From the IMG/VR virus record IMGVR_UViG_3300029794_000022: 34,983 nucleotides of DNA; one strand, given 5' to 3'. Source of the stretch: a virus. Shown one piece after another: positions 6,324 through 34,983 of the stretch (position 1 is the first letter of the stretch; every line of letters starts with the position of its first letter). The notes under the pieces were generated by a model that had not been told where the DNA came from, did no database searches, and saw only the letters and a list, made by a program, of their open reading frames with translations. The position numbers and the translations under genes are program-made.

Positions 6324-6398
6324 TCCAGTCACCTCCTTGTCTAGCACTATCATAGTGTGTTTCTTGAGGGAGTGAGTGAGCTTAGGTGGAGAGAGTAA

Positions 6399-6768: not shown

Positions 6769-6783
6769 AATGTTTCGACGTAT

Positions 6784-7011
6784 CTACTTTGCCGTGTCTT
6801 CGGTTTTGGCTGTTGCGTGGCTAATACCTATGAGCGAACCGATAAGCACGCCGATCGCGTTGAGTGTTGTCACGATTGCGTCGGTATCATGCCAGCCCCA
6901 GACTGCGCCGATCACGCCGATGAAGGTGGCGATTGCCGGAAAGGCTATCAGTCCAGCCCACTTGAGTACTTCGTATGCTTTGTCGTTGAGCAAATATGTT
7001 TTGTTGTCCAT
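6784..7011 (-). CDS. Holin, phage phi LC3 family-like
   Basis: 75 aa; KAYEVLKWAGLIAFPAIATFIGVIGAVWGW...AIGVLIGSLIGIS matches the phiLC3-type holin pattern; two TM segments; RBS GAGGAAG. Confidence 0.7.
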   Translation of the reverse strand: MDNKTYLLNDKAYEVLKWAGLIAFPAIATFIGVIGAVWGWHDTDAIVTTLNAIGVLIGSLIGISHATAKTEDTAK

Positions 7012-8241: not shown

Positions 8242-8607
8242 CTAGTGTATCTCAGGCTCTGGAGTGTCCCCCGCCGTCCCGTCATCCCAAAGAAAACATC
8301 GCCCCCAACATGCGTGGTCTACCGCGATCTTGTGCGGGTCATTGTAGCTGTGGACTAGCCAGCCGTGCTTGTAGGCTTCAGCTGGGTGCATGTGTACGTA
8401 TCCGTGACAGCCTTGTGTCCCACTACCGCAGAGCCAGATCAGGTTGGACGCTTCGTGTAAGCCGCTCCAACCGTGTGACCTCATGCGTCGATGATGGAGT
8501 GAGGCCATCGATCCGTATAGTGCCTTGCCGCATCGGACGCAGCATTGCATGTCCCTTCTGGCACAGATGGATCGTGTCTCTGGTGTCGGGTTCGTGGCCT
8601 TGCTCAT
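8242..8607 (-). CDS. HNH endonuclease, actinophage-like small type
   Basis: CCVRCGK...SLHHRRMRS...NLIWLCGSGTQGCHGYVH motif arrangement. Confidence 0.7.
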   Translation of the reverse strand: MSKATNPTPETRSICARRDMQCCVRCGKALYGSMASLHHRRMRSHGWSGLHEASNLIWLCGSGTQGCHGYVHMHPAEAYKHGWLVHSYNDPHKIAVDHACWGRCFLWDDGTAGDTPEPEIH

Positions 8608-10426: not shown

Positions 10427-10456
10427 ACTATACACCTATAAGAAGGTGACACGCCG
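10427..10456 (-). promoter_or_regulatory. Promoter copy A: CGGCGTGTC-N8-ATAGGTGTATAGT
   Basis: Minus-strand TATAGT at 10432-10427 and the 9-mer at 10456-10448. Same 21-nt register as copies B and C. Confidence 0.55.
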
Positions 10457-11325: not shown

Positions 11326-11355
11326 ACTATACACCGATATAGATGAGACACGCCG
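11326..11355 (-). promoter_or_regulatory. Promoter copy B: CGGCGTGTC-N8-ATCGGTGTATAGT
   Basis: TATAGT at 11331-11326 and the 9-mer at 11355-11347; lies directly after a terminator. Confidence 0.55.
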
Positions 11356-11414: not shown

Positions 11415-11639
11415 TTAGTCGCGTGGGGCGAACCGCACGATCAGCCACAATGCGGTGGCGATGTACACGCCTTCCACCATGAGCGCGGCGGTGGTGTCAC
11501 CGTCATGCCATGTGAGCATGAGTGTGGATGTGACGATGAGGGCGACCACCGCGAGGGCGAATTTGATGCGGCGGCGCGTGTAGTTCGGTTTCCGCGTCTT
11601 CTCCCGCTGGTCTTCGAGCCAGTAGTCGTGGTCGGTCAT
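11415..11639 (-). CDS. Two-TM membrane protein (74 aa)
   Basis: GGAGG lies 7 nt before the ATG at 11639. FALAVVALIVTSTLMLTW and GVYIATALWLIVRF are hydrophobic spans. Last gene before the terminator. Confidence 0.55.
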   Translation of the reverse strand: MTDHDYWLEDQREKTRKPNYTRRRIKFALAVVALIVTSTLMLTWHDGDTTAALMVEGVYIATALWLIVRFAPRD

Positions 11640-11659
11640 TTGGTTGCCTCCAGTCCTTT

Positions 11660-11872
11660 TCATCTTGTGTTTCCTGTCATTTCGTTGAGTGCGTATGCGA
11701 TGCCTTCGATTTCCGCTGGCGTGAAGTCCGCGAGGGTGATGTCTTGGATGCCGTCAACGAGACTGGCGCTGCCGTCCTCATGGAGGCGGAGGTAGAATCC
11801 GCTTGATGCGAGCAGCAGGCATCCGGGTTCGTGGATTGTCGGCGGTGCTGGCGGGTTGAGTGTCTGGTTCAT
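11660..11872 (-). CDS. Hypothetical protein (70 aa)
   Basis: AAGGAGAAAACAA precedes the ATG at 11872, and that ATG overlaps the upstream TGA. Confidence 0.5.
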   Translation of the reverse strand: MNQTLNPPAPPTIHEPGCLLLASSGFYLRLHEDGSASLVDGIQDITLADFTPAEIEGIAYALNEMTGNTR

Positions 11873-12098: not shown

Positions 12099-12395
12099 TC
12101 AGTCGAGATCTGACGGTTCACCATCAAAATAGCGACATAACTGATCGATGACATATTCCGGGGTATCCTCATAACGGTATGGCTTCAGCTCAGCGTTCTT
12201 ATCCCGCTCCTCCTGCTCGATCAACTGGTCTATCCGGTCTTGCTCACCGCGGTGCTGCCATGAGAGTGGCGCGTTGCATTTCGCCCGATTCTCGCACACT
12301 GTGTACTCGTGTCCGCGATACTCGTAGTCGAGATATACCATGTGCGCGTCGTATCCGCTTCCGTAGTATTTCCTAACGAATGTTGCCTTCTTCAT
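12099..12395 (-). CDS. Hypothetical protein (98 aa)
   Basis: AAGGAG RBS; first gene behind promoter copy C. Confidence 0.6.
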   Translation of the reverse strand: MKKATFVRKYYGSGYDAHMVYLDYEYRGHEYTVCENRAKCNAPLSWQHRGEQDRIDQLIEQEERDKNAELKPYRYEDTPEYVIDQLCRYFDGEPSDLD

Positions 12396-12435: not shown

Positions 12436-12465
12436 ACTATACACCTATCAGGGAACGACACGCCG
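12436..12465 (-). promoter_or_regulatory. Promoter copy C: CGGCGTGTC-N8-ATAGGTGTATAGT
   Basis: TATAGT at 12441-12436 and the 9-mer at 12465-12457; follows a terminator directly. Confidence 0.55.
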
Positions 12466-17706: not shown

Positions 17707-17763
17707 TGGATCACCTCCTAATGTGTCCACGATGAGCGCTTTTGTGCTCACCTCTTGCACACC

Positions 17764-17792
17764 ACTATACACCCATTATTCTCAAAGTGCAA
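17764..17792 (-). promoter_or_regulatory. Early lytic promoter: TTGCAC-17 nt-TATAGT with the GGTGTATAGT core
   Basis: Minus-strand -35 at 17792-17787 and -10 at 17769-17764. Flanked by CTTTTGTG operator-like repeats at 17733-50, 17793-99 (inverted) and 17832-45. Confidence 0.7.
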
Positions 17793-17845
17793 CACAAAAC
17801 TACCACTATTTGAAGAATTTACCTCAAAAATTGAGCACTTTTGTG

Positions 17846-17874: not shown

Positions 17875-17933
17875 AAAATGCGTGGAACACCTGAAACAAC
17901 GACGTTTCAAGGCGAAAGGTGGTGAAAAATGGC

Positions 17934-18242
17934 ATGGAGTTTTTGTCGAATCTACAAGCACTTATGCAAGCAAAAGGGATATCACGTCGAAAATTGGCGG
18001 CTGACTGCGGAATAAGCCCAAGCGCGGTGAATTCATGGTTTAACCGCAGTGCAGAAAACATCAGTCTGAAAACTTTAAAAAAGCTATCTGAGTACTTCGG
18101 CGTGAGCATGGAAGAGCTGGTGCATGGCAAAACACCGAAGCACGATCTTGTGTTCTCAAGCGACACATATACGGAGGAAGAACTCGCGCAGATTAAGCAA
18201 TTCGCGCACTTTTTAATAGGGCAACGACGAAAGGACAGATGA
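17934..18242 (+). CDS. XRE-family (cI-like) repressor
   Basis: GISRRKLAADCGISPSAVNSWFNR is an HTH_XRE motif. ATG at 17934; the track start is the GTG at 17919. Confidence 0.8.
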   Translation: MEFLSNLQALMQAKGISRRKLAADCGISPSAVNSWFNRSAENISLKTLKKLSEYFGVSMEELVHGKTPKHDLVFSSDTYTEEELAQIKQFAHFLIGQRRKDR

Positions 18243-18245: not shown

Positions 18246-19760
18246 ATGACATACGCAATTTATTTACGAAAATCACGAAAAGATGACGAAACGGGATATG
18301 CTGATACGCTATCGAGGCATGAAAAAATGCTCATGGATTTAGCCGACCGAATGGGAATCGTAATCCATGAGCATGACATATATAGAGAGATCGTATCAGG
18401 TGAGAGCATCGAAGCCAGACCGCAGATGCAACGACTACTTAAAGCCGTAGAAATGCGAACATACACCGCAGTCCTATGTATCGAATTGGAGCGTTTAAGC
18501 CGCGGTAATGGCGCAGACCAAGCGCGAATCTTGAAAGCATTTCAATTCTCGAACACTAAAATAATCACACTGAATAAAACCTATGATTTAGCCAGTGATG
18601 ACGAATTCGATGAAGAATTCTTTGAATTCGGGCTTTTCATGAGCCGTCGTGAATATAAGACGATTAAACGCCGACTATTACGCGGAAGATTACAGTCACA
18701 ACAAGAGGGATATTTTACCGGTTCTACGCTGCCATTCGGGTACGGGAAAATGAAGAATCCAGAAGGAAAAGGCTACATTCTAATCCCGAATGAACAGACA
18801 CCAATCTTGCAGATGATTTTCCGCCGCTACGCATCAGGCGATCTACTAGCCGATATCGTGCAAGACCTCAACACGGCAGGTGTAAAAACGGCAAGCTCAC
18901 TAAACGCGGAATGGTCAACCAACCGCGTGAGAGACATGCTCAGAAACCGCGTCTATATCGGTGAAATCAACGTGAATAAATATGCGAAGAATAGACGCAT
19001 GGAAGACGGTAGAATCATCGAAACCAAGAGACGCAACCCAGACATGAAGACAGTGCCGGGGAAGCATGAGCCGATAATCGACAGGGAGACATGGGACAAG
19101 GTTCAGGCTAGGTTCGCACGCTTCACACCACGCACCAACATCGACCGATCACTGAAAAACCCGTTAGCGTCTATCATGCGTTGCGCCGAGTGTGGGAAGA
19201 TGATGGCACGCCGCACATACACCCATAAAGGCGTGTCAATCCCCATCATCGTATGCCAATCAAACCGTTGCGTGACCAGACAAAGCAATCTTGAAATGGT
19301 CGAAAACATGGTCATAGAAGCATTGAAAAAAGAGCTTGAAAGACAGCAGACAATCCTCGCAAGCTACAACACCGAAAAGCAAGATAATAGCGATGATAAA
19401 ACACTTGAATTTCTACAAGCTGAAATAGCGAAGAAAGACAAGATGATGGAGCGTGTAGACGAATTGTATGAACTAGGCGATTATAGCAGATCTAAATATT
19501 TGGAACGTTCGCAGAAACTCCAAGCGCAAAAAGCCGACTTAATGAAGCAATTAGAGGAAGTTGAAAAACGCATCAGCGAGCGCGATAACAACCGCAAGAA
19601 CGCAGTGCCAATCCTCACGAAAGTACTGGATGAATACCATACGCTTGATGTGAAGGGTAAGAACGACTTGCTGAAGATGATTATTGAAACGATAACGTAC
19701 CGTAAGCACGAATCGGGTAGTGATATCGAGCCTGAACTATGCTTTAAACTCTTAATTTAA
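18246..19760 (+). CDS. int: Large serine recombinase (integrase)
   Basis: N-terminal resolvase domain (AIYLRKSRKD...ELERLSR), recombinase domain, Cys zinc ribbon (CAECGK...CQSNRC) and a C-terminal coiled coil. Confidence 0.9.
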   Translation: MTYAIYLRKSRKDDETGYADTLSRHEKMLMDLADRMGIVIHEHDIYREIVSGESIEARPQMQRLLKAVEMRTYTAVLCIELERLSRGNGADQARILKAFQFSNTKIITLNKTYDLASDDEFDEEFFEFGLFMSRREYKTIKRRLLRGRLQSQQEGYFTGSTLPFGYGKMKNPEGKGYILIPNEQTPILQMIFRRYASGDLLADIVQDLNTAGVKTASSLNAEWSTNRVRDMLRNRVYIGEINVNKYAKNRRMEDGRIIETKRRNPDMKTVPGKHEPIIDRETWDKVQARFARFTPRTNIDRSLKNPLASIMRCAECGKMMARRTYTHKGVSIPIIVCQSNRCVTRQSNLEMVENMVIEALKKELERQQTILASYNTEKQDNSDDKTLEFLQAEIAKKDKMMERVDELYELGDYSRSKYLERSQKLQAQKADLMKQLEEVEKRISERDNNRKNAVPILTKVLDEYHTLDVKGKNDLLKMIIETITYRKHESGSDIEPELCFKLLI

Positions 19761-19765
19761 TCCGT

Positions 19766-19811
19766 CTGCAAGCATCGCGTATCTGATTTATCGGACACTC
19801 AATGCTTACAG
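19766..19811. other. Candidate attP core: imperfect inverted repeat CTGCAAGCAT-N26-ATGCTTACAG
   Basis: 46-bp element 6 bp downstream of the int stop, with 9 of 10 complementary arms; central TT at 19788-89. Confidence 0.35.
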
Positions 19812-19822
19812 ACAATAATAAT

Positions 19823-19856
19823 GGCGGATAGTCGAATGGCTACCCGCCTTTTATTA
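19823..19856. terminator. Bidirectional terminator between the convergent int and RBP genes
   Basis: Stem 19823-31/19840-48 with one mismatch (a G.U on the minus strand). TTTTATTAT follows on the plus strand and ATTATTATT on the minus strand. Confidence 0.6.
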
Positions 19857-19859
19857 TGG

Positions 19860-21623
19860 TCAGCTTACCCGCTTCCACATGAAAACAGCCAAGTACGGAG
19901 GCATATTATTGTGGGGCTTCCCGCCGCCCGCGAACATGGTCTGCACGTTCCCGCCGTAACCTTTCTTATCTTGCGCGGAAACCGTCATATAAGGCGTTGC
20001 ATTGCCCGACGCGTTGAGATTGTCAATCTCATGGTTATGCTTCGGCATTTCATCGATCGTCAGCGTATGCTCTGCCTCGCCGCCAGTGCTCCCCGCCGTA
20101 TAGGTATCGTCAGCGCCCAAGAGGAACCGCCCGCCGATACGCTCCCACGTCCCGCCGAAAAGCGTAGCCGGGTCGGTATCAGTCACACTCAAGTAGATCG
20201 CGCCGACCGGGTATGCGCCCGCCGCCGTGAGAAACGCATTCTCCCCCAGTTGCAAGCGGTCATAGCCAGCGGGGAAGCAATTAACGCCGACACTGGATTT
20301 AACTGTATCGATGAAGAATGTCGGGATACCACGTCCAAGCGTCAGCATCTGGGTAGTGCTTCCCAGCTTGTCAGCCGTCGTTATCTGCCACTCATAAGCG
20401 TAATCGCGCTCACATGTCACAGTCGATTCCACACCATTAGCAAGCGTTATGGTAGACCATGCGTCACTGCTCCCAGCCTTGCGGTATTTCGCGCTGATCG
20501 TCACATCATTTTTAGCATCTAGGCTCGCATACCATGCCGTCGCAGTCACATGCGTTTCCGGCTCGAAATTATTGAGACGCTTAAGGTCGATAGTCGATGT
20601 CGGATCCCACCACGGCTCAACCTTGACAGTGAGCGTCGTGGACGTTTTCAAACCGCGCGAATCCGTCACGGTAAAGACCAGTGGCATATCCGAGGAAACA
20701 TCAACCTTGCCGAAGTCAATAGTGACCACGCTGGATGCACTCTTAGTCACACCGGCAAAAGTCGCTTCGTAGCCGGTAATCGTCGCGCCTTTCTGAGCCG
20801 TTGCCGCTGTGAAAGTCACTTGCAAGTCAGATTGACGCTGGACAATCACCTGATTATCACCAGTCACCGCCACCGTGGCCGCGTTAGCGTCCTTGTAGGT
20901 GACTGAGCCAAGAATTGGCGCGGAATCGCTCATGCTCATGGTACGATCAAGCGTGCTGTAGTACTCTTTGCCGCCGATAAAGGTACGCAGTGCATACCGT
21001 ACCGGCATCGATATCCCTGTACACGCCGCCCGCAACGTCTCACGCTCCGCGTCAGTAAGGACAAACTCATACGCGCCGCTCTTGCCCGTGATGGCGTTCC
21101 TGCGCATGATCTGAGTACCAGAGCCGACCGGAGCGAACTCCAAATAAGCGTCAGCCGTGAAGCCACCGGCATTGCTGTATGCAAGAGATGGCGTCCCAGT
21201 ATCCGTGAAATCGGTGGCGCTGGTGATTGTCGCCTGTCGCGGGATATTGTCAAGCGTGATGCTGCCGTTTGCCGTAATGCTGGATACCTGCGAGCCATCA
21301 ATCGCCGCATTGACATTAAACACGTCAGTGACGGTGCATGTCTTGCTACCGTCTGCATTGTGATTGACACGGTGTGTAGTCGTGCCGAGAGCGACGCTCC
21401 CGCCCTTCTGATTGATTGCCGGTGACGTGTAATTTTGAGCCGCACCGTCAACCGTACAAGTGTTCGAGCGGCTGGAAATGTGCAGCGAATAAGCAGCGCC
21501 GATTACGAGCACGTGACGAATCGTAATATCGGAGTAATTGCCGCTAATATCCTGTGTGGCTGTCCAATTAGCCTGTAGAGTATATCCGCGATAAACGCCT
21601 GTAATAGTACCTGAAAGCGCCAT
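19860..21623 (-). CDS. Receptor-binding / tail fibre protein (DUF859-like N-terminus, tail-collar-like C-terminus)
   Basis: The N-terminus (GYTLQANWTATQDISGNYSDITI...TLDNIPRQATI) is DUF859-like. The C-terminus (GGTWERIGGRFLLG...HTLTIDEMPKHNH...PPYLAVFMWKR) is collar-domain-like. Confidence 0.7.
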   Translation of the reverse strand: MALSGTITGVYRGYTLQANWTATQDISGNYSDITIRHVLVIGAAYSLHISSRSNTCTVDGAAQNYTSPAINQKGGSVALGTTTHRVNHNADGSKTCTVTDVFNVNAAIDGSQVSSITANGSITLDNIPRQATITSATDFTDTGTPSLAYSNAGGFTADAYLEFAPVGSGTQIMRRNAITGKSGAYEFVLTDAERETLRAACTGISMPVRYALRTFIGGKEYYSTLDRTMSMSDSAPILGSVTYKDANAATVAVTGDNQVIVQRQSDLQVTFTAATAQKGATITGYEATFAGVTKSASSVVTIDFGKVDVSSDMPLVFTVTDSRGLKTSTTLTVKVEPWWDPTSTIDLKRLNNFEPETHVTATAWYASLDAKNDVTISAKYRKAGSSDAWSTITLANGVESTVTCERDYAYEWQITTADKLGSTTQMLTLGRGIPTFFIDTVKSSVGVNCFPAGYDRLQLGENAFLTAAGAYPVGAIYLSVTDTDPATLFGGTWERIGGRFLLGADDTYTAGSTGGEAEHTLTIDEMPKHNHEIDNLNASGNATPYMTVSAQDKKGYGGNVQTMFAGGGKPHNNMPPYLAVFMWKRVS

Positions 21624-21638
21624 AATATCATCCTCCTA

Positions 21639-23312
21639 TTAGCTCATCGCGACGAATGCTACGCCGTTATTATCGCCTGAAGCGACTGGCACGATTTTCA
21701 GCTTGCCGCCAACCGCAAGCCCCTCTTCGACATAACCATTGCGCATGTAGAAAACGCCATTAGTGACCGTGTAAGTCACCTTATTGGCCGAATCATAGCC
21801 GGTCAAGCCTTTATCCGCGCTCACGACAATATGCGAGCCATCAGTAGCCCACATGGTCAAACCGCCATTATCGAGCCGCCCCAATGTCGCTCCAGCCGCC
21901 GACTTGACAAGCATCACGCCATTGCCATTGTCCTGTCCGCCGAGCGTGAGTGTGCCGCCTTTGATAAGGTCAGCCACTAAATTAATCACGTTAATATCCT
22001 GCATATTGAGGGTTCCGTCAATCGTCCAAGCGCTTGTAAAACTGCCGTCGATGCCGGAACTGCTGAAGCCGATCCCTGCGGAATTAATACGCAACACATT
22101 ATGTGCGGATTCCTTCGGCAGGGAATCCACGACCAGAATCTGTTCACCGTCGTAAATAACATAGCTACCGCCATACAGATTGTTGATTTTGTTTTCGGAT
22201 TCATTCAACCGGTCATTTACTGTGGTGACGATTGAGGAATTTACCGCCTGAGCCGCGTCGGTTGCCGTCTGCTGTACAGTACCCATCAAGCCCGAAAGCG
22301 TCTGTTTGAAAGTGCCGAATTCAATGCTCGTGTAGCGCTGTTGGATACAATCGAACTCGAATGATATGACGTTGGTCATCATGTCCAAGCCCATGCGCTC
22401 GTCAATCACTTCGATAGTGTCGCCAATGTCCGTTATTTTCTCCAGATTAGCCGACATCTTGTAGTTGACTTTTGGGACGCAATTCTCGTCCAAATACTTT
22501 TGTGCTTGTTGGCGTAGATCGGAAAGCAGAGCCTGCTTATACGCCACTTCGTCATTGTGTTTACCGTCTGGTGTCTTATAGTCTTCCTGCTTGATATCAG
22601 ACTGCGAGAATTGCACGGTCTTCGTATACGGTAGATCGTACTGTTTTGACGCTTCCATGTAGACCGAGACGCTGCTGTCCAGAGCATTAAGCAGGATACC
22701 GTCACTGCCTTCTGGCAGAAGCTTCGTGCATACGTCGCTCCAGTCGTATGACGCTTCGATGCTCTTGAGATTCTTGCCATAGCGCACTACCACGCCATTA
22801 TCCGCTCCGATAGACTGTCGGATGCCGATAGTCCACCCGTCGCGTACCAAGTGCCCGCCCCAACGCTCCAAAACGGTAGTAATGGCTTCGTAGAGCGACT
22901 TTCGCACGCAACGGAACGAGTCAATCGTATTAATGTCCGAAACCGTCCTGAATGGCGATTGAGGCTCCGTAGCGGTATTGAGATGGTCAAGCGCCTGATT
23001 ACAAGTGCTGTCCACAACATACGAATCTGCAATCAAATAATTAGCAGAATCATAAAAAACATGGTTGCATTTGCACGTGATCTTAGTATGTGTGATCTCC
23101 GGGTTAAGTATACGAAAAGGCTGGGCACCTTGCGGGGTGTCAGCGACGATGATGTTGCCTGATTTGATCCACGGCAAGTATTCCGTGCCGCACGTCAAAT
23201 CCAAATAATAAGCGTCGTTGTCTTCCTTCCTTACTGTCGCTTTTAGCGGCTGGATTACTTTGTCGCCGTTAGTGGCATAAGTCTTGTCTGTTGGGCTGAA
23301 GATTCTGAGCAT
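21639..23312 (-). CDS. Tal-type tail protein (phage minor structural protein N-terminal / prophage tail endopeptidase family)
   Basis: AGGAGGTG sits 4 nt before the ATG at 23312. MLRIFSPTDKTYATNGDKVIQPL...AQPFRI matches the Tal N-terminal pattern. The track ORF's N-terminal extension to 23561 is spurious. Confidence 0.75.
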   Translation of the reverse strand: MLRIFSPTDKTYATNGDKVIQPLKATVRKEDNDAYYLDLTCGTEYLPWIKSGNIIVADTPQGAQPFRILNPEITHTKITCKCNHVFYDSANYLIADSYVVDSTCNQALDHLNTATEPQSPFRTVSDINTIDSFRCVRKSLYEAITTVLERWGGHLVRDGWTIGIRQSIGADNGVVVRYGKNLKSIEASYDWSDVCTKLLPEGSDGILLNALDSSVSVYMEASKQYDLPYTKTVQFSQSDIKQEDYKTPDGKHNDEVAYKQALLSDLRQQAQKYLDENCVPKVNYKMSANLEKITDIGDTIEVIDERMGLDMMTNVISFEFDCIQQRYTSIEFGTFKQTLSGLMGTVQQTATDAAQAVNSSIVTTVNDRLNESENKINNLYGGSYVIYDGEQILVVDSLPKESAHNVLRINSAGIGFSSSGIDGSFTSAWTIDGTLNMQDINVINLVADLIKGGTLTLGGQDNGNGVMLVKSAAGATLGRLDNGGLTMWATDGSHIVVSADKGLTGYDSANKVTYTVTNGVFYMRNGYVEEGLAVGGKLKIVPVASGDNNGVAFVAMS

Positions 23313-23348
23313 TGTTGCACCTCCTGTATCAATGATATGGATAAAAAC

Positions 23349-23390
23349 GACACGCCGAGTGGTTGCGTACCGACGTGATAGGTGTATAGT
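23349..23390 (+). promoter_or_regulatory. Promoter of the plus-strand cassette (TTGCGT-16 nt-TATAGT with the GGTGTATAGT core), preceded by an inverted copy of the 9-mer
   Basis: GACACGCCG at 23349-57, -35 at 23363-68 and -10 at 23385-90. Confidence 0.65.
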
Positions 23391-23438
23391 AATAAGTACC
23401 AGCCGGAAACACCGGCAGGCAACGAGAAAGGAACCACA

Positions 23439-23714
23439 ATGAACACCATCAACAGCAACGAACAGGGCGAGACCAAATATATCGTACACACATACGACCT
23501 GATGGCGCAACACCACACCCGCACATTCAAAAACCTCAACAAGGCAATCGAATACCTTCACAACGAACGCGAATACTACGCCACCTCAGTAATCGAGAAC
23601 GACCGCCATTTCAGTGACGGCACCGGAAACATCGACGACGAAAATATCGCGTGGACACAAAAGAATTTCTTCTACATCGAGCAGATTACGAAAATCGCTC
23701 GCCTCGACTACTGA
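23439..23714 (+). CDS. Hypothetical protein (91 aa), gene 1 of the plus-strand cassette
   Basis: GAGAAAGGAACCACA precedes the ATG; no family recognised. Confidence 0.65.
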   Translation: MNTINSNEQGETKYIVHTYDLMAQHHTRTFKNLNKAIEYLHNEREYYATSVIENDRHFSDGTGNIDDENIAWTQKNFFYIEQITKIARLDY

Positions 23715-23724
23715 ACGATTCACC

Positions 23725-23748
23725 GGGCGGGGGCTTCGGCTCCCGCCC
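23725..23748 (+). promoter_or_regulatory. Very stable intercistronic hairpin with a C(UUCG)G tetraloop and no U tract
   Basis: GGGCGGGGGC-TTCG-GCTCCCGCCC: 10 bp including one G.U that is valid only on the plus strand. Confidence 0.6.
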
Positions 23749-23768
23749 ACCACATGGAAGGACACGCC

Positions 23769-23927
23769 ATGAAAGACAAGCTCGAAACCCTCAGCATCAT
23801 ACTCGTCTTCGCCGGAATGATCCTAAGCATGAACGCCGACGAAACCCACATGACAGTGAATTTCATCGGCGTGGGAATCGCGATCGTTGGATCGCTAATC
23901 CTGCACGTCATCGGCAGGGACGCATGA
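23769..23927 (+). CDS. 52-aa two-TM membrane protein, gene 2 of the plus-strand cassette
   Basis: Hand-translated: MKDKLETLSIILVFAGMILSMNADETHMTVNFIGVGIAIVGSLILHVIGRDA. GGAAGGA RBS. Below the track cutoff. Confidence 0.55.
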   Translation: MKDKLETLSIILVFAGMILSMNADETHMTVNFIGVGIAIVGSLILHVIGRDA

Positions 23928-23972
23928 GATATACTGAGACTTGTCGGGAAAGTCCCGGCCTGTATTTGCCAA

Positions 23973-24008
23973 GTGGCGCGTGGAAAATTAGTCAACAACC
24001 CGCGCCAC
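23973..24008. terminator. Hairpin between the convergent cassette and endolysin genes
   Basis: 8-bp stem GTGGCGCG/CGCGCCAC with a roughly 20-nt loop; weak U tracts on both strands. Confidence 0.4.
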
Positions 24009-24020
24009 TATCACTCTTAA

Positions 24021-25091
24021 TCAGTCGATTCTCAGCACCTGCCCGACACGAATCAGATTAGCGTTCTTGATTCCGTTAATCTGCTGGAGCCGCTGCCAAG
24101 TCGTACCGTACCGAGCGGCAATACCGGAGAGCGTATCACCGGCACGCACCGTGTAAGTCCGCGACTGGTGCCCACCGCCCAGCTTCTGGTTGACGATAGA
24201 CTGCACCGCATTATAGCGATTGCCAAGCGCACGCTTACGATTCTCGCCATCCCCGTACTTTCCGGCGATCACTTCGTCGGCAAGCTGAGCGTCGGTCTTA
24301 CCGGCGAGCGGATCAGCAAGCCGCTGATTGACAATAGCCTGAACAGCGGCATAGCGATTACCGAGTGCCTTCTTACGTGCATCGCCATCACCGTACTTTC
24401 CGGCAATCACTTCGTCGGCAAGCTGATTATCGGACTTGCCAGCGAGCGGGTCAACCGGCTTAGGTGTCGGAGTAGCCGCGCCGGAAGCACCAGCGTACTT
24501 ACGCCAAGCGTTCGCATCACCATAGAACTTGTCAAGGTCGAGATTGCCATTCCAGCCGGTAAGCCGTCCAGCAGACGAATACTGACGGATAGCACAAGAA
24601 TAGGCTCCCTCATTCCACGGCTGATCCTGATAGCCGGTCGCGCTCATATCGGCATACTGGGCGATCCACAAACCGCAATCATGACGCTTGGCAACAGCAG
24701 CCGTCTGGGTATAAGCGGAAGCCTGCACGTAGATAAGCGGCTTGATGCCGGTACGCTCGATAACGCGGGAGACAAGCGCATCAAGGTATGTGTAGTTCCC
24801 CCACGCCCTATTAGAACCGCCCTCCCAGTCGATGCACAGGATACCCCTACCCAGATAACCCTTGATATTGTCCACGTAGTAGTCAGCTTCCGCCACAGCG
24901 CCGGAGCCGTTCACGTAATGATACGTGCCCCAGCACTTGCCAAGCTTAATGCACTGCTGCACAGCGCGGTCGCAATCAGGATTGACGTAATTAACGCCTT
25001 CCGTCGCCTTGACGATAACAAAATCGCAAGGGACTACGCTAAGGTCAATCCCCGCTTGATACGAACTCACATCGATTCCTCGAAGTGACAT
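24021..25091 (-). CDS. Endolysin: GH25 muramidase, two CW_7-like repeats and a C-terminal LysM
   Basis: RGIDVSSYQ...KATEG...DWE (GH25). Duplicated DPLAGK(S/T)[58 protein letters not shown] (LysM). GAAGGAG RBS at 25091. Confidence 0.85.
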
Positions 25092-25219
25092 AATATCACT
25101 CTCCTTCATATCTTTTAAGCACATGTCCTCTGCACGTGCGTTGAAACCATTTATTGTTATTTTACTTGGATTCCAGAGCCGCAATGCGGTCTATCGCCGC
25201 TTGTCAGTCGATGCCATCA

Positions 25220-27115
25220 TCAAGACTGCGAACCAGCTGCGACCCAAGAAACGGTACCTTCAAACCACGTACCAGTGTTGTAATTGGTATCGACGGTAGG
25301 ACGGAACGCCACCTCGTTGCCTTTGACCTGCAAAGCCGTGTTATTGTTCGGCTCACTATTAGCATTAGTCACAATCGGCATATGAACTTCGCCGAGAGAG
25401 CCAAGACCCTCAGGGAGAGTAAGGACATGCGCACGGTCCCACCCCTTAGCATTCCACGCGGCACTCTTGCGACTCGCCGAGAATGACAGTGTGCAGACAC
25501 CGCCGACCACTCGCAACCTGCAAAACTTCCAAGTATAGTCGTCATACCAAGTGCCCTTGGTAAGACCACTGCCAACCTCGTAAGTGGCGGGGCTGATGAG
25601 AGCATCATACTTCGATTGCATCTGACTGATGCGGTCGGCCAGCGCCTGCACGTCGATGGTGCCATCGGCCGACACGTTGATTCCCGCGCCAATCTTGATA
25701 CCGCCGAGAGTGGTGGCCGTGGCAGCGGGAAGCGTGTAGACGCCCTCACCTTTATCGCCCTTGTCGCCCTTGTCGCCCTTGTCGCCCTTCTGACCTTTAA
25801 GGGTGGCGAGAATGGGGCCGACACCATACGAGCCACCGCCGCTGGTGGTTGTGCTCTTGATAAGCATGAGATTACCAGAAGGCGTGAGGATAAAATCCCC
25901 TATCATAGGAGGGTCTGTCACGGTTGCGCTTGGCCTCAAGTAACTCCAACCGTGGGACGGACTGCTCGGCGCCATCTCACCGGGCACTGAGTATATCCGG
26001 TTGCCGCGCGGGCCAGTAGCGCCTGTGTCGCCCTTGTCACCTTTCGGGATCGTGAAGTCAAGCACAACGTCCTTAGCTGTCCCGGAATTCACGACACTCG
26101 CCTGCGTACCCGGCGCACCCGTCGTAGTCTTACCGACCTTAAGCGTATTACCGCCAGTACCGATAGACGTGACACCAATGTACTTGCCGCCGCGAGCATA
26201 CCAGACGGCATTCAGCGAAAGCTGGTATGGAACCACATGGTCAGGCAGCATGCTGCGATAGAATCTCAGAGTGTACACGCCACCGTTCTCTTCGATGTAG
26301 AACCGCTGGAAATCCGAGGCTCCCGACGTGTCACCGGAGATAACACCCTTCGTGTTGTCTGTCGAAATAATGTAGTATCCCGTTCCGCTGCCGGAAGTAT
26401 AGTCGAAAAATGCCTTGTCCGGGCAATATTTGCCATCGACTTGGCATAAATCGTATGTCTGGTCGTTGCTGGTGCTGAGGCTAAGAGAGCCGTTGGCGTG
26501 GGCGTGGACAAGCGCTGTCATCGGGTCATATGTCAGTTGCACGTGTATAGTGTCCACGCCGTTAAGCTGGACATTATCGTCGTAGATCGTGGTAGGCTTG
26601 CTGCTCGCGCCGACCAGTCCGCTAATATCCTCGACTGTCTTATTAAGCGCATCAGACTTGGCAGTCAGTGACGAAGACAGATTGTCAAACTTCTTCTCAA
26701 TCGATGAAGTGTACTGGTCATACAATGTCCTGTCATCAGCACTGGCCGCCGAAGCACGACGCATGCTGGCCGCTTCAACCTCAATGATGAAATTCTGCGT
26801 GCCGATAGGATTACCGTCCGCATCGAAAATCACCAATTCCGCCGCGTGCTTGCCCGCGCACTTGGTCATCTCCTGATTGATGGTGAAGCTCACCTTGCTA
26901 CCGGTGCCCACAGTGCACGACACCGAGAACTCCACGTCATCAGCTCGAGTACCATCGACACGAGCCACCATGCCGTCAATCTGCGCCAAATCACGCCCAT
27001 CATAGACCGTGAACACGATAGTGCGCGAGCCAGTATCGAACTGAGACATTTTAACTACCGGATACTCGCCGGTAGCCTTTAAGTCAATGTCGTAATTCTG
27101 GGTAATTACAGCCAT
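25220..27115 (-). CDS. BppU-N-like baseplate/fibre protein with a collagen-like stretch
   Basis: AGGAGGA RBS. N-terminus ITQNYDIDLKATGEYPVVKMSQFDTGSRTIVFTV is BppU_N-like. GDKGDKGDKGDKGEG triplets. Confidence 0.6.
   Translation of the reverse strand: MAVITQNYDIDLKATGEYPVVKMSQFDTGSRTIVFTVYDGRDLAQIDGMVARVDGTRADDVEFSVSCTVGTGSKVSFTINQEMTKCAGKHAAELVIFDADGNPIGTQNFIIEVEAASMRRASAASADDRTLYDQYTSSIEKKFDNLSSSLTAKSDALNKTVEDISGLVGASSKPTTIYDDNVQLNGVDTIHVQLTYDPMTALVHAHANGSLSLSTSNDQTYDLCQVDGKYCPDKAFFDYTSGSGTGYYIISTDNTKGVISGDTSGASDFQRFYIEENGGVYTLRFYRSMLPDHVVPYQLSLNAVWYARGGKYIGVTSIGTGGNTLKVGKTTTGAPGTQASVVNSGTAKDVVLDFTIPKGDKGDTGATGPRGNRIYSVPGEMAPSSPSHGWSYLRPSATVTDPPMIGDFILTPSGNLMLIKSTTTSGGGSYGVGPILATLKGQKGDKGDKGDKGDKGEGVYTLPAATATTLGGIKIGAGINVSADGTIDVQALADRISQMQSKYDALISPATYEVGSGLTKGTWYDDYTWKFCRLRVVGGVCTLSFSASRKSAAWNAKGWDRAHVLTLPEGLGSLGEVHMPIVTNANSEPNNNTALQVKGNEVAFRPTVDTNYNTGTWFEGTVSWVAAGSQS
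25755..25790. repeat. 9-bp tandem repeat x4 encoding (GDK)n
   Basis: tcgcccttg units at 25755, 25764, 25773 and 25782. Confidence 0.9.
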
Positions 27116-27126
27116 AATCAATCCTC

Positions 27127-27849
27127 CTAGATCCATCGTGAATAGTCTTCGATGGTGAGACTACTAACCGTCCCACTCCATTTTATCGAATGTTTGCCCG
27201 GCGAAAGCGTCAGCCTCTGATAGTCTCCGGTAATATGCCGGTTCATTAACGCGCCTTCCGGCGTGGACGCTTCCAGATTGGCAACATCGATCACAAGCGT
27301 GTAATCGCCCGTGTTGGCGACCTGCAAGACCTGCGAGCCATCAAGATACAGCCCGATATTACCGCTAGCCTTGATGGTGAGCTTCGGTGCCGCCGACACA
27401 TTCCCCGCATTCGTCACCACCGCCTGAGCGTCCGCATTCGTAAAGACTTTCGGCCGCTGGAGCCTGCCAGTCTTATACGGCTGGACGTGGAGCTTCACGT
27501 CAGCCGTCCGATACCGCACTAATCGCTCGAAATCAATGTTTTCAAGCTGCTGGAATCGGTACGCTTTATCAGGCTCATTGCTGAATGTGATTGTGCCACT
27601 AGTGGCGAAGAATTCCACCACCTTGTCAATGTCGAATCCGCCATGCAGACCGATGCTTAGCGTCTTGTCGTAAGCCTGATATCCAAGCGTGGTGATGATA
27701 TCACCGTCCCTGCCGTCGATTTCCTCCGCGTTATAACGCATCTTAGGCTTCGTGATCGGCGGAAGCGAAGTCACAATAAGACCATTCACGCCATATGACG
27801 GCTTGTCATTGATAAGCACCCAAGGACGGGTATACGCAAAACCTTCCAT
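27127..27849 (-). CDS. Distal tail protein (Dit, siphovirus tail component family)
   Basis: 240 aa immediately after the tape measure gene; NGLIVTSLP...AEEIDGRDGD...YDKTLSIGL pattern. Confidence 0.7.
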   Translation of the reverse strand: MEGFAYTRPWVLINDKPSYGVNGLIVTSLPPITKPKMRYNAEEIDGRDGDIITTLGYQAYDKTLSIGLHGGFDIDKVVEFFATSGTITFSNEPDKAYRFQQLENIDFERLVRYRTADVKLHVQPYKTGRLQRPKVFTNADAQAVVTNAGNVSAAPKLTIKASGNIGLYLDGSQVLQVANTGDYTLVIDVANLEASTPEGALMNRHITGDYQRLTLSPGKHSIKWSGTVSSLTIEDYSRWI

Positions 27850-27862: not shown

Positions 27863-30424
27863 TTATCCATAGATGGCGGCTGTGACCGTCTTCTTGACAA
27901 AACGCCCAGCCACTTCGTCATCAAGCACCACGCGCACACCCTGCAGGGCTTCGACCAGAGCATCAATCAGGTTAGACTGCGAACCATACCCGTAGCCGGG
28001 GGAAGCCGATTGAGCCGCCGAGACAGTGCCAAGATCGTAAGACTGAGCAAAAGCGTCAGAGCTAGGCATAGCATCAATCATCTGCTTCGACACATTGCCC
28101 ATCTCGTCCTCGAAGCCCACGCCAATACCCTCAGCCAAATACTTGCCAACCTCATCACGCATCAGCCTCGAAGGCGAGTGGATACCGAAGAAGCCCTTGA
28201 TATCCTGCATAATCCCGTGAACCCAGCCGCTCACCTTGTCACGAAGCCAGCCAGCAGAATTCTGGATACCCTGCCACAAGCCACTGACGATGTTCGCGCC
28301 GACATCAAGCACCATGCTAGGAGCCTGCCTGAGCGCCCCGACAATGCTGCTCACGACATTTCTCGCGCCACTCACGGCATTGCCGATACCCCTCACGATG
28401 CCCGCCGCAAGCTGCACCATCATCTGCAAGCCCGTGCTGAGAATCTCAGGCAAATGCGCGCTGAGCGTCCTCACAATCTTCACCACGATCTGCGGGAGCA
28501 TGGCGATCAATTGAGGGATCGCCTGAGTGATGCCTTGGATTAGGGCGATAAGGATCTGGATACCGGCAGTGACGAGCAAAGGCAGATTATTCAGTAGCAC
28601 GTCGGTGATCTGCATGACGATACCGGGCAGCATCTGGATAAGCTGCGGCAAGGCTTCCACCAAGCCATTAGTCAAGGCAATAAGCATCTGCACGCCAGCT
28701 TGGATAATCAACGGCAGATTAGCCAGCACCACTGATGCCACTTGTTGCACAATCGTCGGCAACATCGCGATTAATGTTGGCAATGCTTCCGTGATGCCCT
28801 GAATCAGGCTAGCCAGCATCTGCATACCAGCATCAATCAACTGCGGTAGCAGCGTGAGCAGGGCTTCCACGATCTGCGGCAAGGCGTCAGCCAGCGCACT
28901 CATAATCTGCGGGAGCGCCGCGACAATCGCCTGCACCACCTGCGACAAGCCACTCACAATATTAGGCACTTGAGCCGTAATCAACGGCAGAAGCTGCGAT
29001 GTAAGCATGTTCACCGCTTGCGGAAGCAGCTGGACAGCCGCAGTAACCATGCCGTTAATCAAAGGCGCGATACGCGGCATGATATTCGACGCGAAAGTAT
29101 TGACCGAATCAACAAGATTGTTGATCAGCCCGTCCATATTCGCGCCACTATCGGACATGCCAGCGAGCAGATTCTGCCAGCTCGCCTTCATCGCGTTCAT
29201 CGAGCCTTCGATGGTCGTGGACGCTTCCTTAGCCGTCGTGCCAGTGATGCCCATCTGCGTCTGCACGGCATGGATGGCCTTAACGGTATCGCCAAAGTCA
29301 CCGACAGTGTAGTGCTCGCCGGTCAGCTTCTCAGCGTCCGACATGAGACGTTCCATCTCGGCCTTCGTGCCACCATAGCCGAGCTTCAAATTATCGAGCA
29401 TGGCATAATTTCCACGAGCCAAGCTCTGGTATGTCTGCTGGATAGAGCCGATATCAGTGCCCATTTTGTTCGCGTTATCGCTCATGTCCTGCACGGCGGT
29501 ATTACCAAGCTCAGCCGCCGCCTTCGTGTCACCACCAAGCGACTGGATAAGCGACGCGGTAAAGCCCGTAACGGTATCCATGTACTCGTTAGCGCTCATT
29601 CCAGCCGCCTTATAGGCGTTATTCGCGTAATCCTGCACGATACCAGCCGAATCTTTGAAAAGCGTCTGTACGCCGCCCACAAGCTGCTCATTCTGCGAAT
29701 ACGCTTCGATGGCCTGCTTGCCGACATTAAGCACAGCGGCACCAAGATTCTTCAATCCATTGACAGCCGCACCAATGGCACTGGACGCAAGATTAGCCAG
29801 CACATTCTTGAACACGGTATACCCGCCGCTAGCTTCCTGCGCCTGCCTACCACTCTTAGCTGCTTCCTCGCCAAGCTCACTAGCAGACTTGCCAGCCTTA
29901 TCCATATCAGGCGACAAGCTCTTAATCTCAGCGTCAGTCTTGTTGATATCCGCCTGAGCATTATTCATCTGCGTGCGCATCTTGCTCATGGCAATCTCAT
30001 TGGCATTGACAGCCGCCGAAGACTTATCCACATCACGAGCCAGATTCGCCACGACTTTCGCCTGCGCCTGATACTCAGGAGACGTTTTGCCAAGCGTCGC
30101 CTCAATCTGCGCCAGCTTCTGCTTCTCAGCATCATAGCTTGCGACAAGCTCCTTATGCTTCGTATTGTTCGCCGTGTACTGCGCGCTCATGGCGCGATAT
30201 TGCGAGGTAAGGACGCTCAGCTTTTCCTTCTGCGCAGCCATCTTGTTATTCAGCGCTTCAGTCCTCGCAGTCAGCGCCACCTGAGACGTGTCGCTCTTTG
30301 CATACTGGGAGCTGACGACTTTCATTTCAGATCCGACTTCACGCAGATTCTGCGAGATACGTGCAAGCGCCTGACGATAGGCGCTCTCACCTTGTAACTT
30401 AATCGCGCCGCCGAAACCTGCCAT
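27863..30424 (-). CDS. Tape measure protein
   Basis: 853 aa; coiled-coil N-terminus; long hydrophobic LPQ(I/L)(I/V)-type repeats; position after the chaperone pair. AGGAGGTG precedes the ATG at 30424. Confidence 0.85.
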   Translation of the reverse strand: MAGFGGAIKLQGESAYRQALARISQNLREVGSEMKVVSSQYAKSDTSQVALTARTEALNNKMAAQKEKLSVLTSQYRAMSAQYTANNTKHKELVASYDAEKQKLAQIEATLGKTSPEYQAQAKVVANLARDVDKSSAAVNANEIAMSKMRTQMNNAQADINKTDAEIKSLSPDMDKAGKSASELGEEAAKSGRQAQEASGGYTVFKNVLANLASSAIGAAVNGLKNLGAAVLNVGKQAIEAYSQNEQLVGGVQTLFKDSAGIVQDYANNAYKAAGMSANEYMDTVTGFTASLIQSLGGDTKAAAELGNTAVQDMSDNANKMGTDIGSIQQTYQSLARGNYAMLDNLKLGYGGTKAEMERLMSDAEKLTGEHYTVGDFGDTVKAIHAVQTQMGITGTTAKEASTTIEGSMNAMKASWQNLLAGMSDSGANMDGLINNLVDSVNTFASNIMPRIAPLINGMVTAAVQLLPQAVNMLTSQLLPLITAQVPNIVSGLSQVVQAIVAALPQIMSALADALPQIVEALLTLLPQLIDAGMQMLASLIQGITEALPTLIAMLPTIVQQVASVVLANLPLIIQAGVQMLIALTNGLVEALPQLIQMLPGIVMQITDVLLNNLPLLVTAGIQILIALIQGITQAIPQLIAMLPQIVVKIVRTLSAHLPEILSTGLQMMVQLAAGIVRGIGNAVSGARNVVSSIVGALRQAPSMVLDVGANIVSGLWQGIQNSAGWLRDKVSGWVHGIMQDIKGFFGIHSPSRLMRDEVGKYLAEGIGVGFEDEMGNVSKQMIDAMPSSDAFAQSYDLGTVSAAQSASPGYGYGSQSNLIDALVEALQGVRVVLDDEVAGRFVKKTVTAAIYG

Positions 30425-30435
30425 TATCCCACCTC

Positions 30436-31031
30436 CTAGAACCATTCTTCTTCTTGCGCCTGCTTAGCCTTCACCTGAGCATAAGTCGTGTTATTCACTC
30501 GAAGCATATTCTCCACGTCGAACACGTTTTGATATGCCTGATACCGCCCCATGAAGTCCTTGAGCGTCAAGCGCATAACCTCACGGTCAGACGATAAGCC
30601 CAACCGCGCCCGGCCAATAAAAAGTATCCACGAGAAATCTATGGCCGGGTCTTGGTCAAAAATCACGTCATCGTCGTGGATTATTCGTTTTTTGAGCCGT
30701 CCTCAGTGGACGCGACAACAATCTCCTGCATCTGCGCAGTGATAGCGTCCATTCCGACAGCGCCGATCAATCGTCCGACCTGCTTCAACGTCAACGGCTT
30801 GATATCCGCGCCGGTGTCCTCATTATCGATGTCAATGCCTTCATTGAGCATTGCCGCGAACCCGAAAATGACAGCCTTTGCATTCGGCTCTCCGTTCTCG
30901 CCTTCGGTCTGCTTGCCCCACTCGTCCAGCGACCCGTACTCTTCCTGAATCGCCTGCATCACATTCAGATTGAAAGCAAGGTGATATTCCTGCCCCTTGT
31001 AGACAATCGCATCATTCGTTTTCTTAGTCAT
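30436..31031 (-). CDS. Tail assembly chaperone, -1 frameshift fusion (G-T-like)
   Basis: A -1 slip at A AAA AAC joins the G-like frame to ORF 30436-30666 (registers match, no intervening stop): ...SKKRIIHDDDVIFDQDPAIDFSW... Confidence 0.65.
30681..31031 (-). CDS. Tail assembly chaperone (G-like, short product)
   Basis: 116-aa acidic ORF between the major tail and tape measure genes. Confidence 0.75.
   Translation of the reverse strand: MTKKTNDAIVYKGQEYHLAFNLNVMQAIQEEYGSLDEWGKQTEGENGEPNAKAVIFGFAAMLNEGIDIDNEDTGADIKPLTLKQVGRLIGAVGMDAITAQMQEIVVASTEDGSKNE
30687..30693 (-). promoter_or_regulatory. Slippery heptamer A AAA AAC for the -1 programmed frameshift
   Basis: UCA AAA AAC GAA UAA at the end of the G-like ORF. 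Confidence 0.65.
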
Positions 31032-34456: not shown

Positions 34457-34983
34457 TTAATCCTCCTTTAATTCGGCAATGAGCTTTTCCCATTTGCCGT
34501 AATCAATTGTACTATTTTTTTCTTCGGAATTATCGCGCGTATTCTGCGGTTCTTCCTCAGTCTTTTCAACCGGTTTATCTGCCAGTTTTTCTTCGGTGAC
34601 TTCCGGCTTATCATCGGTCATCGCTTCACCGGTATTAAGATGCACCGTGTCCCCGTCAGCATCTCGTGCTTGGATCAGCGTACCATCGTATGCCGGAACC
34701 TTCGAGCGGTCAAGGATTGACACCTCGTAGAGATCAAGGTCTTTCACATCGCGGGTCATCATGCCGTTCTCATCGTGCGTATCCACGTCCCTATCGGTAA
34801 AGCCGAAGCTCCACCCCACAAGGTCGCCGCGCTTGGCTTTCTCGATCACATCGGCATCGGTAATTGTCGCCTTCGCTCGCAACCCGATATTATCCTCATG
34901 CAGCTCTAGGTTGCCCTGCTTGGTCGAGCCAAGATCGCGATTAGTGTCGTGATTCAGCAAGACATGGATATCGTCGTTGCGTT
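34457..34983 (-). CDS. HK97-family prohead protease, C-terminal part; the 5' end is at 262 after circular wrap
   Basis: LLNHDTNRDLGSTKQGNLELHEDNIGLRAKA...GDLVGWSFGF is a protease core motif; acidic C-terminal tail. Confidence 0.85.
   Translation of the reverse strand, partial: RNDDIHVLLNHDTNRDLGSTKQGNLELHEDNIGLRAKATITDADVIEKAKRGDLVGWSFGFTDRDVDTHDENGMMTRDVKDLDLYEVSILDRSKVPAYDGTLIQARDADGDTVHLNTGEAMTDDKPEVTEEKLADKPVEKTEEEPQNTRDNSEEKNSTIDYGKWEKLIAELKED
34861..34983. repeat. Second copy of the 123-bp terminal repeat
   Basis: Identical to 1-123. Confidence 0.95.

Follow-up and report, generated by a model that had tools for sequence, protein, structure and literature searches.

In phage lambda, the bor gene, which encodes an envelope protein expressed in lysogeny, lies by the lysis genes, runs in the opposite direction and has its own promoter. 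The Imm protein of T4, a small early membrane protein for which two membrane helices are predicted, prevents superinfecting phages from injecting their DNA, and in prophages the toxin-paratox gene pair is located beyond the lysis genes. Paratox of Streptococcus pyogenes prophages is reported to be a small conserved phage gene that always stands beside a variable toxin gene (PMC8383118, PMC6224593). The gene 15 moron of HK97 encodes gp15, a small inner-membrane protein that blocks genome injection by related phages (PMC3594210), and promoter and stem-loop (PeSL) cassettes mediate gene shuffling in T4-type phages (PMC2839356, PMC4122927). Here we analyse a locus with features of several of these systems in the IMG/VR virus record IMGVR_UViG_3300029794_000022, a stretch of 34,983 nucleotides (nt) that we call, at its full length, the window. 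The locus is the plus-strand region 23349-24008, which lies between the endolysin and Tal genes and holds two small genes, A and B. We read it as a moron-type accessory transcription unit with a slot for swappable cargo genes, in which B would be a probable membrane exclusion protein, and regard this combined reading as evenly balanced. The architecture and its evolution as described below are held with high confidence; the exclusion role of B, taken by itself and proposed by analogy, is tentative.

Architecture of the unit

The anatomy of the unit, its pattern of conservation, the turnover of its cargo, the dispensability and mobility of B and the repeated use of its promoter were observed by comparing the window with loci of relatives, numbered L001 to L041, to which a metagenome scan contributed at least three further loci. 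A first-pass annotation of the window had described an autonomous accessory unit on the opposite strand, and this description holds: promoter and terminator are the unit's own and are conserved, the unit is dispensable, and it evolves far faster than its neighbours. Gene calls across the 12-kb loci of the relatives are likewise consistent with its being the only plus-strand unit besides the repressor and integrase genes. At the level of sequence, an own promoter, an own terminator and presence or absence among close relatives mark a moron, and each of these was found. In the architecture that we propose, the fixed parts would be a host-type promoter with a -10 box typical of the family, the membrane-hairpin gene B and a plus-strand terminator. 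The variable part would be the slot between promoter and B, in which small, acidic, soluble proteins are exchanged and which in the window is filled by A and a GC-rich hairpin.

The promoter (23363-23390, +) comprises a -35 element TTGCGT at 23363-23368, a 16-nt spacer and a -10 element TATAGT at 23385-23390, the positions at which these elements had been placed before. It had been graded as good, yet only 8 of its 12 positions (3 of 6 in the -35 element) agree with the sigma-70 consensus, and it was not flagged by a promoter scan. That it is a real promoter is suggested by its conservation. A 14-mer spanning the -10 element (GATAGGTGTATAGT, 23377-23390, +), hereafter the box, is found family-wide and is present in full in all but one of the relatives read, the exception (L038) having TATAGGTGTATAGT. 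Its 10-nt core GGTGTATAGT is kept at the position of the unit's promoter in every relative that retains the unit.

The same core occurs five times in the window, against about 0.07 occurrences expected for a 10-mer in 70 kb of sequence, and the box is found at both the early promoter and B in all relatives. The other copies in the window are on the minus strand. An exact copy at 12436-12449 follows a terminator (12503-12477) and heads the gene at 12099-12395, a copy with two mismatches and an exact core at 11326-11339 follows a terminator at 11394-11367, and a copy with one mismatch at 10427-10440 heads a small gene whose product starts MTTEIN. A further copy (17764-17777) belongs to the early promoter next to the repressor gene (TTGCAC, 17 nt, TATAGT), where it is flanked by operator-like repeats. 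The copies at 12436 and 11326 stand directly downstream of strong terminators, and the A/B promoter has no terminator before it.

The operator-like repeat GAGCRCTTTTGTG has two exact copies (17734-17746 and 17833-17845) and is limited to the region of the repressor gene and the early promoter; a search for it at the A/B promoter gave no copy. The spacer that separates the repressor gene from the early promoter also has, on the opposite strand, a third TTTTGTG motif, which together with the two exact copies probably forms the repressor operators. Since no such repeat stands at its promoter, the unit would probably be active both in lysogens and early in infection, with A and B presumably co-transcribed from the single promoter. 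The specifically lysogenic expression favoured by the first-pass annotation is not implied, because the promoter type is shared with the early lytic promoter and with the early small-gene units.

Several observations concern the box-headed early units. The 8-mer GGCGTGTC stands exactly 15 nt upstream of the -10 element in three early small-gene promoters (10448, 11347 and 12457, -). It recurs, inverted, between Tal and the A/B promoter (23349-23356), and in the ribosome-binding region of B (23761-23768), on the plus strand; candidate roles are those of a site bound by a regulator, of a -35 element of unusual type or of a microhomology for recombination. One strong terminator, GGCGGCATGT(C/T)CTAGGCGTGCCGCC with a T tract behind it, is present in two copies spaced by about 150 nt (12656-12632 and 12503-12477, -). 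Between the two copies lies a promoter-like site, GTGTATAAT (12598), and the sequence upstream of the terminators (the flanking ~60 nt) is repeated; possible explanations are a cassette site that has lost its content or a unit for a small RNA. The unit that begins at the 12436 box is closed by an open reading frame (ORF) at 11415-11663 (-) for a protein of 82 amino acids (aa) with two predicted membrane helices, for which a family search gave no match. Here, as in the A/B unit, a gene for a small membrane protein comes after genes for small soluble ones.

Two hairpins follow B. The first (GTCGGGAAAGTCCCGGC followed by CTGTATTTGC, 23943-23969, +; stem at 23943-23959) carries the tail CTGTATTTG, had escaped the earlier description and is the sole plus-strand terminator-like site in 22800-24600. 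It has been conserved through compensatory changes in its arms (GTCGGGA/TCCCGAC versus GCCGGGA/TCCCGGC), and in L014 another hairpin replaces it at the same place. The second (23972-24009) has the arms GTGGCGCG and CGCGCCAC around a variable loop of 15-19 nt and ends 12 nt before the endolysin stop codon. Its arms are kept in nearly all loci, including L035, which lacks B, and neither strand has a U tract. The terminal hairpin that had been described as shared with the lysin gene is thus present as this second structure, and judged by its sequence the shorter hairpin at 23943-23959 is the likelier terminator of B and of the unit. We also considered the second hairpin as an attachment site of the integrase and rejected it, a better candidate being found at 19764-19813.

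Turnover of cargo in the slot

A and B had been described as a fixed two-gene cassette, but in most relatives B stands alone. It is the only gene on its strand between Tal and the endolysin gene in L001-L009, L014, L030, L031, L039 and L040. The end of the -10 element and the ATG of B are 378 nt apart in the window and 28-29 nt apart in the cargo-less loci L001-L009 and L014; A with its hairpin thus amounts to about 350 bp of DNA inserted into the leader of B. The inserted cargo module (23391-23752, +) consists of a leader, gene A and the GC-rich hairpin, and this A module is also found on two short contigs from other samples (L025, L026). Its leader contains a hairpin (CCAGCCGGAAACACCGGCAGG, 23399-23418, +; -11.3 kcal/mol, z = -2.9) that is not conserved in other cargo leaders and, read on the minus strand, resembles a weak terminator.

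Gene A (23439-23714, +), preceded by the ribosome-binding site GAAAGGA, is an ORF of 91 aa, as had been claimed. Its product is acidic (isoelectric point, pI, 5.4), is predicted to be soluble and is modelled as an alpha/beta protein with a predicted local distance difference test score (pLDDT) of 72.7. Among 5.8 billion clustered proteins we found only a 99%-identical cluster, on short contigs, and an exhaustive HMMER search gave one credible relative (P0020; 91 aa, 38% identity), the other three matches being dismissed as repetitive or compositional. The gene for this relative was located on a GC-rich contig from a phage, where it is one of a series of small genes that precede an HNH gene, and not in a slot of the B type. 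The model of A gave no fold match at E <= 0.001 in PDB and BFVD; the top PDB match, AcrIIA15 (E = 0.3, TM 0.34), was dismissed as evidence. By its sequence distribution A appears to be lineage-specific cargo, found in the window lineage only.

In other relatives the slot holds other genes, and all-against-all BLAST sorted the cargo into six unrelated families, all of them small, acidic proteins (pI 4.6-6.3). Whereas the window has A with its 91 aa, L010 and L041 have a protein of 145-146 aa with a distant 133-aa relative in L013 (the 133-146-aa family), L011 has a protein of 116 aa, and L018, L021 and L038 share a family of 132-141 aa. In L012 there are two units in tandem, encoding 109 and 99 aa and each headed by a box of its own. 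Pfam, PHROGs, PADLOC and NCBIfam were searched with A, B and seven cargo proteins, and no informative match or named family was found for any of them, the only cargo matches being those of the L011 protein to two PHROG families of unknown function. A trace of a former occupant is seen in L020, where a scar mini-ORF (MKNITERH and a stop codon) lies between the promoter and B.

The junctions of the slot are readable on both sides. At the 5' junction, the box, a leader of similar sequence and the first codons (MNTIN, MNTIT, MKTIT or MTTEIN) are common to cargo genes that are otherwise unrelated. The small gene behind the box at 10427 begins with MTTEIN, as does the cargo of L011, to which it is unrelated. 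With 89% identity, the product of the gene at 12099-12395 of the window matches the L012 cargo of 99 aa, and the promoter block, leader and 3' flank are common to both; genes thus pass between the early array and the slot. From these flanks we read the L012 cargo and its promoter block as a joint copy of a unit in the early array, and cargo swaps as starting at the box, leader and first codons.

At the 3' junction of the window module stands the GC-rich hairpin (GGGCGGGGGC-TTCG-GCTCCCGCCC, 23725-23748, +), with 10 pairs including one G-U and no U tract, as previously noted. A 56-nt segment containing it folds at -25.3 kcal/mol (z = -2.8). It had been taken as an element of the A/B pair; instead, it is a 3' boundary shared by cargo modules of three of the six families. 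One and the same stem, with the loops TTCG, TACG, TACA, CTTATAA and CCAATAA, trails unrelated cargo in L010, L013, L018, L021, L038 and L041, the L038 version having one extra, compensated U-A pair. Folded separately, the versions (segments of 51-52 nt) range from -19 to -29 kcal/mol. No GC hairpin is present in the cargo-less loci, and its occurrence behind unrelated cargo together with this absence makes it a part of the cargo module and not of an A/B pair. A formal count of covariation was dropped, as there are six distinct versions only and MAFFT misaligned one arm of L038. Rfam gave no match, either over the whole window at the gathering thresholds or over 23300-24100 at E <= 1. Lacking a U tract, the hairpin would most likely be an element for the 3' end or stability of the RNA, or else a partial attenuator that separates cargo from B.

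The junction sequences point to cargo exchange by recombination at two conserved flanks. The 5' flank would comprise the promoter, the leader and the first ~6 codons, and the 3' flank the hairpin and/or the ribosome-binding site of B, while the common promoter block would let genes move between the early small-gene units and the slot. A bolder version would make the locus a dedicated exchange site, with portable 5' and 3' recombination ends that shuttle small genes between the early array and the slot, in which the cargo acts as sensor or modulator and B as effector of a modular defence or exclusion system of exchangeable specificity. We think this improbable.

Gene B and its conservation

Gene B with its ribosome-binding site occupies 23756-23927 (+), the site being GGAAGGA at 23756-23762 and the coding region 23769-23927. 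Its 52-aa product had been described as a protein with two transmembrane segments, and the structural model agrees with this, predicting a hairpin of two hydrophobic helices at residues 2-20 and 25-51 (pLDDT 88.9). Its relatives form 17 protein clusters with identities of 73-98%, all but one called at 52 aa and mostly encoded on contigs of 33-36 kb, and IMG/VR contigs take the family down to 50% identity. Two sub-threshold Pfam matches, DUF2427 and PhaG_MnhG_YufB, were dismissed as generic matches to membrane helices. A tblastn search of phage sequences with B gave no match, and a megablast search with 19800-27200 against GenBank phages gave only a 44-nt chance match.

B evolves much faster than its surroundings: across loci whose Tal proteins share 93-97% identity in their first 180 residues, its products share 50-98%. 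Two observations support its reading frame: the ratio of nonsynonymous to synonymous polymorphism (pN/pS) is 0.50 in the B frame, the lowest of all six frames, and the antisense ORF is interrupted in two loci. This antisense ORF (23720-23998, 92 aa) was rejected as a true gene, its frame being broken in L010 and L005 and its pN/pS lying above that of the B frame. Residues G16, N22, N31, G34, G36, G41 and G49 are invariant, the N-terminal MKDKLE is conserved and the second helix is rich in glycine. Variability is highest in the loop between the helices (1.23 bits, against 0.26 bits in the N-terminal tail). The L030 allele joins a wholly different N-terminal half (beginning MMDIIETIAVAFIFSG) to the usual C-terminal half, a mosaic within a gene for 52 aa.

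In base composition the two genes resemble the phage's own early small genes. The GC content at third codon positions (GC3) is 0.71 for A and 0.74 for B, versus about 0.60 for Tal and endolysin, 0.63-0.79 for early small genes and 0.50 for integrase and repressor. Overall, A has a GC content of 0.478 (genome, 0.517), and A and B, like the early small genes, are low in T.

B is dispensable and it moves. In L035, a contig of 34.9 kb, the promoter and all but the last ~5 codons of B are gone, and both downstream hairpins and the endolysin gene are kept. In L037 (498-734), a GC-rich B with its own ribosome-binding site lies inside the early small-gene array of an AT-rich phage, and its neighbours there are homologous to the early small genes of the window; this suggests that B alone was recently acquired by horizontal transfer. 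The unit is absent upstream of Tal in more remote relatives, namely L033 and L034 (Tal identity 64-66%) and phage c5 (Tal identity ~50%). One further locus, L009 (contig ERR13898615_2269, 1993-2445), has neither repressor nor integrase and keeps the early box, Tal, B and the endolysin gene. It looks like a recent lytic derivative, with the same B as L007 and L008.

Possible functions and alternative explanations

The exclusion role proposed for B derives from three features: a fast-evolving loop that would face outward, the dispensability of the gene and its autonomous promoter. By analogy with HK97 gp15 and T4 Imm, B would lie in the cytoplasmic membrane with its variable loop outward and would hinder genome entry by related phages, a form of superinfection exclusion. 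With exclusion proteins of the HK97 gp15, T4 Imm and Sie2009 types it shares the predicted character of a small membrane protein whose phage gene has its own promoter. A would have a role of its own, not tied to B, among many interchangeable accessory proteins for defence or counter-defence, again by analogy.

Several points weigh against the reading as a moron-type unit with an exclusion protein. The -35 element is weak (3 of 6 consensus positions), the promoter lies under the scan threshold, and since the promoter is of the early lytic type, expression could be mainly lytic and not lysogenic. The GC hairpin is not obligatory: L011 has cargo without it, and that of L012 differs. If the genome of L035 were defective, the case for the dispensability of B would be weaker, and a pN/pS of 0.5 indicates moderate constraint only. 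A and B have no informative homologue in the families and databases searched and A has no fold match, so that exclusion is proposed by analogy. Scans of representative bacterial and archaeal genomes, with B and with the N-terminus of Tal, gave no match, and no host is assignable from them.

The alternative that survives best is an early lytic accessory unit, fired together with the other box promoters, in which the cargo would serve host takeover or anti-defence and B would be an early membrane protein, directed for example against secondary infection. The box of the unit is identical to that of the early promoter and of three early small-gene units, one cargo family is common to the early array and the slot, and the B of L037 sits among early small genes. 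Moreover, the GC3 of A and B is like that of the early small genes and unlike that of integrase and repressor, the cargo proteins are all small and acidic, and in the virulent relative c5 the early genes are served by repeated terminator-promoter cassettes. However, the absence of the operator-like repeat means that nothing visible holds this promoter off in a lysogen, and an own terminator with an orientation antisense to the late genes is the classical layout of a moron. The two explanations overlap and differ chiefly in timing and in the role of the cargo; we consider the early lytic one possible, at a level clearly below that of the moron-type reading as a whole.

Under a second alternative, B would be a lysis-timing protein (a holin, an antiholin or a pinholin-like protein) acting with the adjacent endolysin. 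Its small size, two helices and glycine-rich second helix would suit this role, as would its position next to the endolysin gene in almost all relatives, where no holin gene stands beside the endolysin and the recognised holin is ~17 kb off. However, B is convergent with the endolysin gene, from which two hairpins separate it; it is not co-transcribed with that gene and has its own early-type promoter. It matches no holin family in Pfam, PHROG or NCBIfam, whereas the ORF at 6784-7011 (-) is a clear holin of the Dp-1 family (PF16938, E = 1.7e-19; also phrog_881). In addition, L035 lost B and its promoter yet keeps the endolysin gene, the B of L037 is far from any endolysin, and B diverges much faster than its neighbours. 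We judge a lysis role very unlikely.

We assign a similarly low standing to two-part abortive infection, in which a variable soluble protein would be the sensor and B the shared membrane-disrupting effector. A constant membrane protein does lie downstream of a variable soluble one under a single promoter, and the conserved hairpin could set the ratio of the two products. Nevertheless, most relatives have B without any cargo, so that the function of B must be independent of cargo; a gene known as cargo is likewise found in the early array, with no B adjoining, and there were no PADLOC matches.

The least probable of the functional alternatives is a toxin-antitoxin module, either with A as antidote to a toxic B, as the first-pass annotation had suggested, or with B as a type I toxin under an antisense RNA. 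B is indeed hydrophobic, shorter than 60 aa, located on a prophage-type genome and convergent with the endolysin gene; however, because it keeps its promoter without A, or with five unrelated replacements of A, A cannot be its antidote and the pair is effectively excluded, there are no matches to toxin-antitoxin families in Pfam or PADLOC, scan and alignment gave no conserved antisense promoter within or downstream of B (a weak or atypical one could escape), and B entered L037 with only its ribosome-binding site. An invertible segment was rejected, as no flanking inverted repeats bracket the unit.

Genome context

The window is a complete, circularly assembled genome of ~34.86 kb, as indicated by an exact terminal repeat of 123 bp (1-123 and 34861-34983). 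Its GC content is 51.7%, and nearly all genes are on the minus strand. Among these are the genes for the tape measure protein (27863-30445), Dit (27127-27849), a BppU-type protein (25220-27136) and the endolysin (ORF 24021-25184, stop codon 24021-24023), whose product has a GH25 domain, two CW_7 repeats and LysM. The A/B region follows, and beyond it lie Tal (21639-23312, -) and a DUF859/Gp10_C fibre gene (19860-21623, -). No convincing candidate for a sigma-70-type promoter of Tal was found on the minus strand of the Tal-B spacer. The repressor (17919-18242) and a serine integrase (18246-19760) are encoded on the plus strand. Directly 3' of the integrase gene, the imperfect inverted repeat GTCTGCAAGCAT-N26-ATGCTTACAGAC (19764-19813) is a likely phage attachment site, and a bidirectional terminator comes next.

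The Dp-1-type holin gene lies ~17 kb from the endolysin gene, and a gap of 430 bp (6354-6783), in which there is no endolysin, parts it from an HNH gene (5955-6353, -). In phage c5 the order, immediately before the packaging genes, is holin, endolysin, HNH; from this comparison the endolysin seems to have been relocated, together with the B unit, to the gap between the BppU-type protein and Tal in the family of the window phage. There are three separate HNH endonuclease genes (5955-6353, 7639-8175 and 8242-8607, -), all within 2.7 kb ahead of the packaging genes, and in L031 and L035 a further gene resembling homing endonucleases adjoins the endolysin gene. The BppU-type protein is strongly modular, having 638 aa with a GDKGDKGDKGDKG repeat and no GDPD domain in the window, and in L001-L008 350-379 aa, or up to 662 or 890 aa where a GDPD phosphodiesterase domain is present. 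This modularity suggests swaps of receptor binding.

Relation to known systems

The locus is a hotspot in an uncultured family of temperate phages of ~35 kb, with at least six unrelated small proteins of unknown function and a fast-evolving membrane protein, and hotspots of this type have been good sources of exclusion, defence and counter-defence proteins in the past. Since both cargo junctions are readable and a deletion scar and one early-region donor site were found in addition, it offers a clean natural example of accessory-gene movement. It also explains an oddity of annotation, the endolysin gene being parted from the holin gene and placed with the B unit within the tail-tip genes.

Judged by Tal (~50% identity), the closest cultured relatives are the Lactobacillus delbrueckii group-b phage c5 and its kin, and on account of this kinship Lactobacillaceae are the first candidates for the host. 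They share with the window phage the order tape measure protein, Dit, GDPD/BppU-type protein and Tal, a holin gene next to HNH ahead of the packaging genes, and small early genes set among annotated terminator-promoter pairs. In contrast, c5 has its endolysin gene between the holin and HNH genes, has neither endolysin nor B nor a cargo unit between the GDPD protein and Tal, and has no annotated repressor or integrase in the stretches read.

Among the single-gene systems, lambda bor shares the position by the lysis genes, the opposite direction and the own promoter. It differs in that Bor is an outer-membrane lipoprotein of a phage with a Gram-negative host, has no cargo slot and has no homology to the unit. 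The T4 Imm protein resembles B in its two predicted helices, but it has 83 aa, comes from a virulent phage and is not homologous. The pairing of a constant gene with a variable one recalls paratox, but B is a membrane hairpin and paratox is soluble and binds to ComR; moreover, the cargo proteins are not secreted toxins, and there is no homology.

The HK97 gene 15 moron is likewise an extra unit of promoter, gene and terminator in a tail or late operon, patchy among relatives and with a small membrane product. Unlike it, the unit described here is antisense to the late operon and has an interchangeable cargo slot, and there is no kinship of sequence or fold between the two. As in PeSL cassettes, repeated blocks of sigma-70-like promoter and stem-loop flank small non-essential ORFs and bound insertions, deletions and replacements, and composites of terminator and box of the PeSL kind are present in the window at 12503-12436 and 11394-11326. 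At the A/B unit itself, however, the cargo separates the promoter block from the hairpin, and the two do not form one composite motif; moreover, the motif sequence differs and the phage is a temperate siphophage of ~35 kb, not a T4-type myovirus. The locus belongs to kinds already known, namely morons, shuffling cassettes and conserved genes with variable cargo, and it is not a new kind of system, while its proteins and the locus itself are new.

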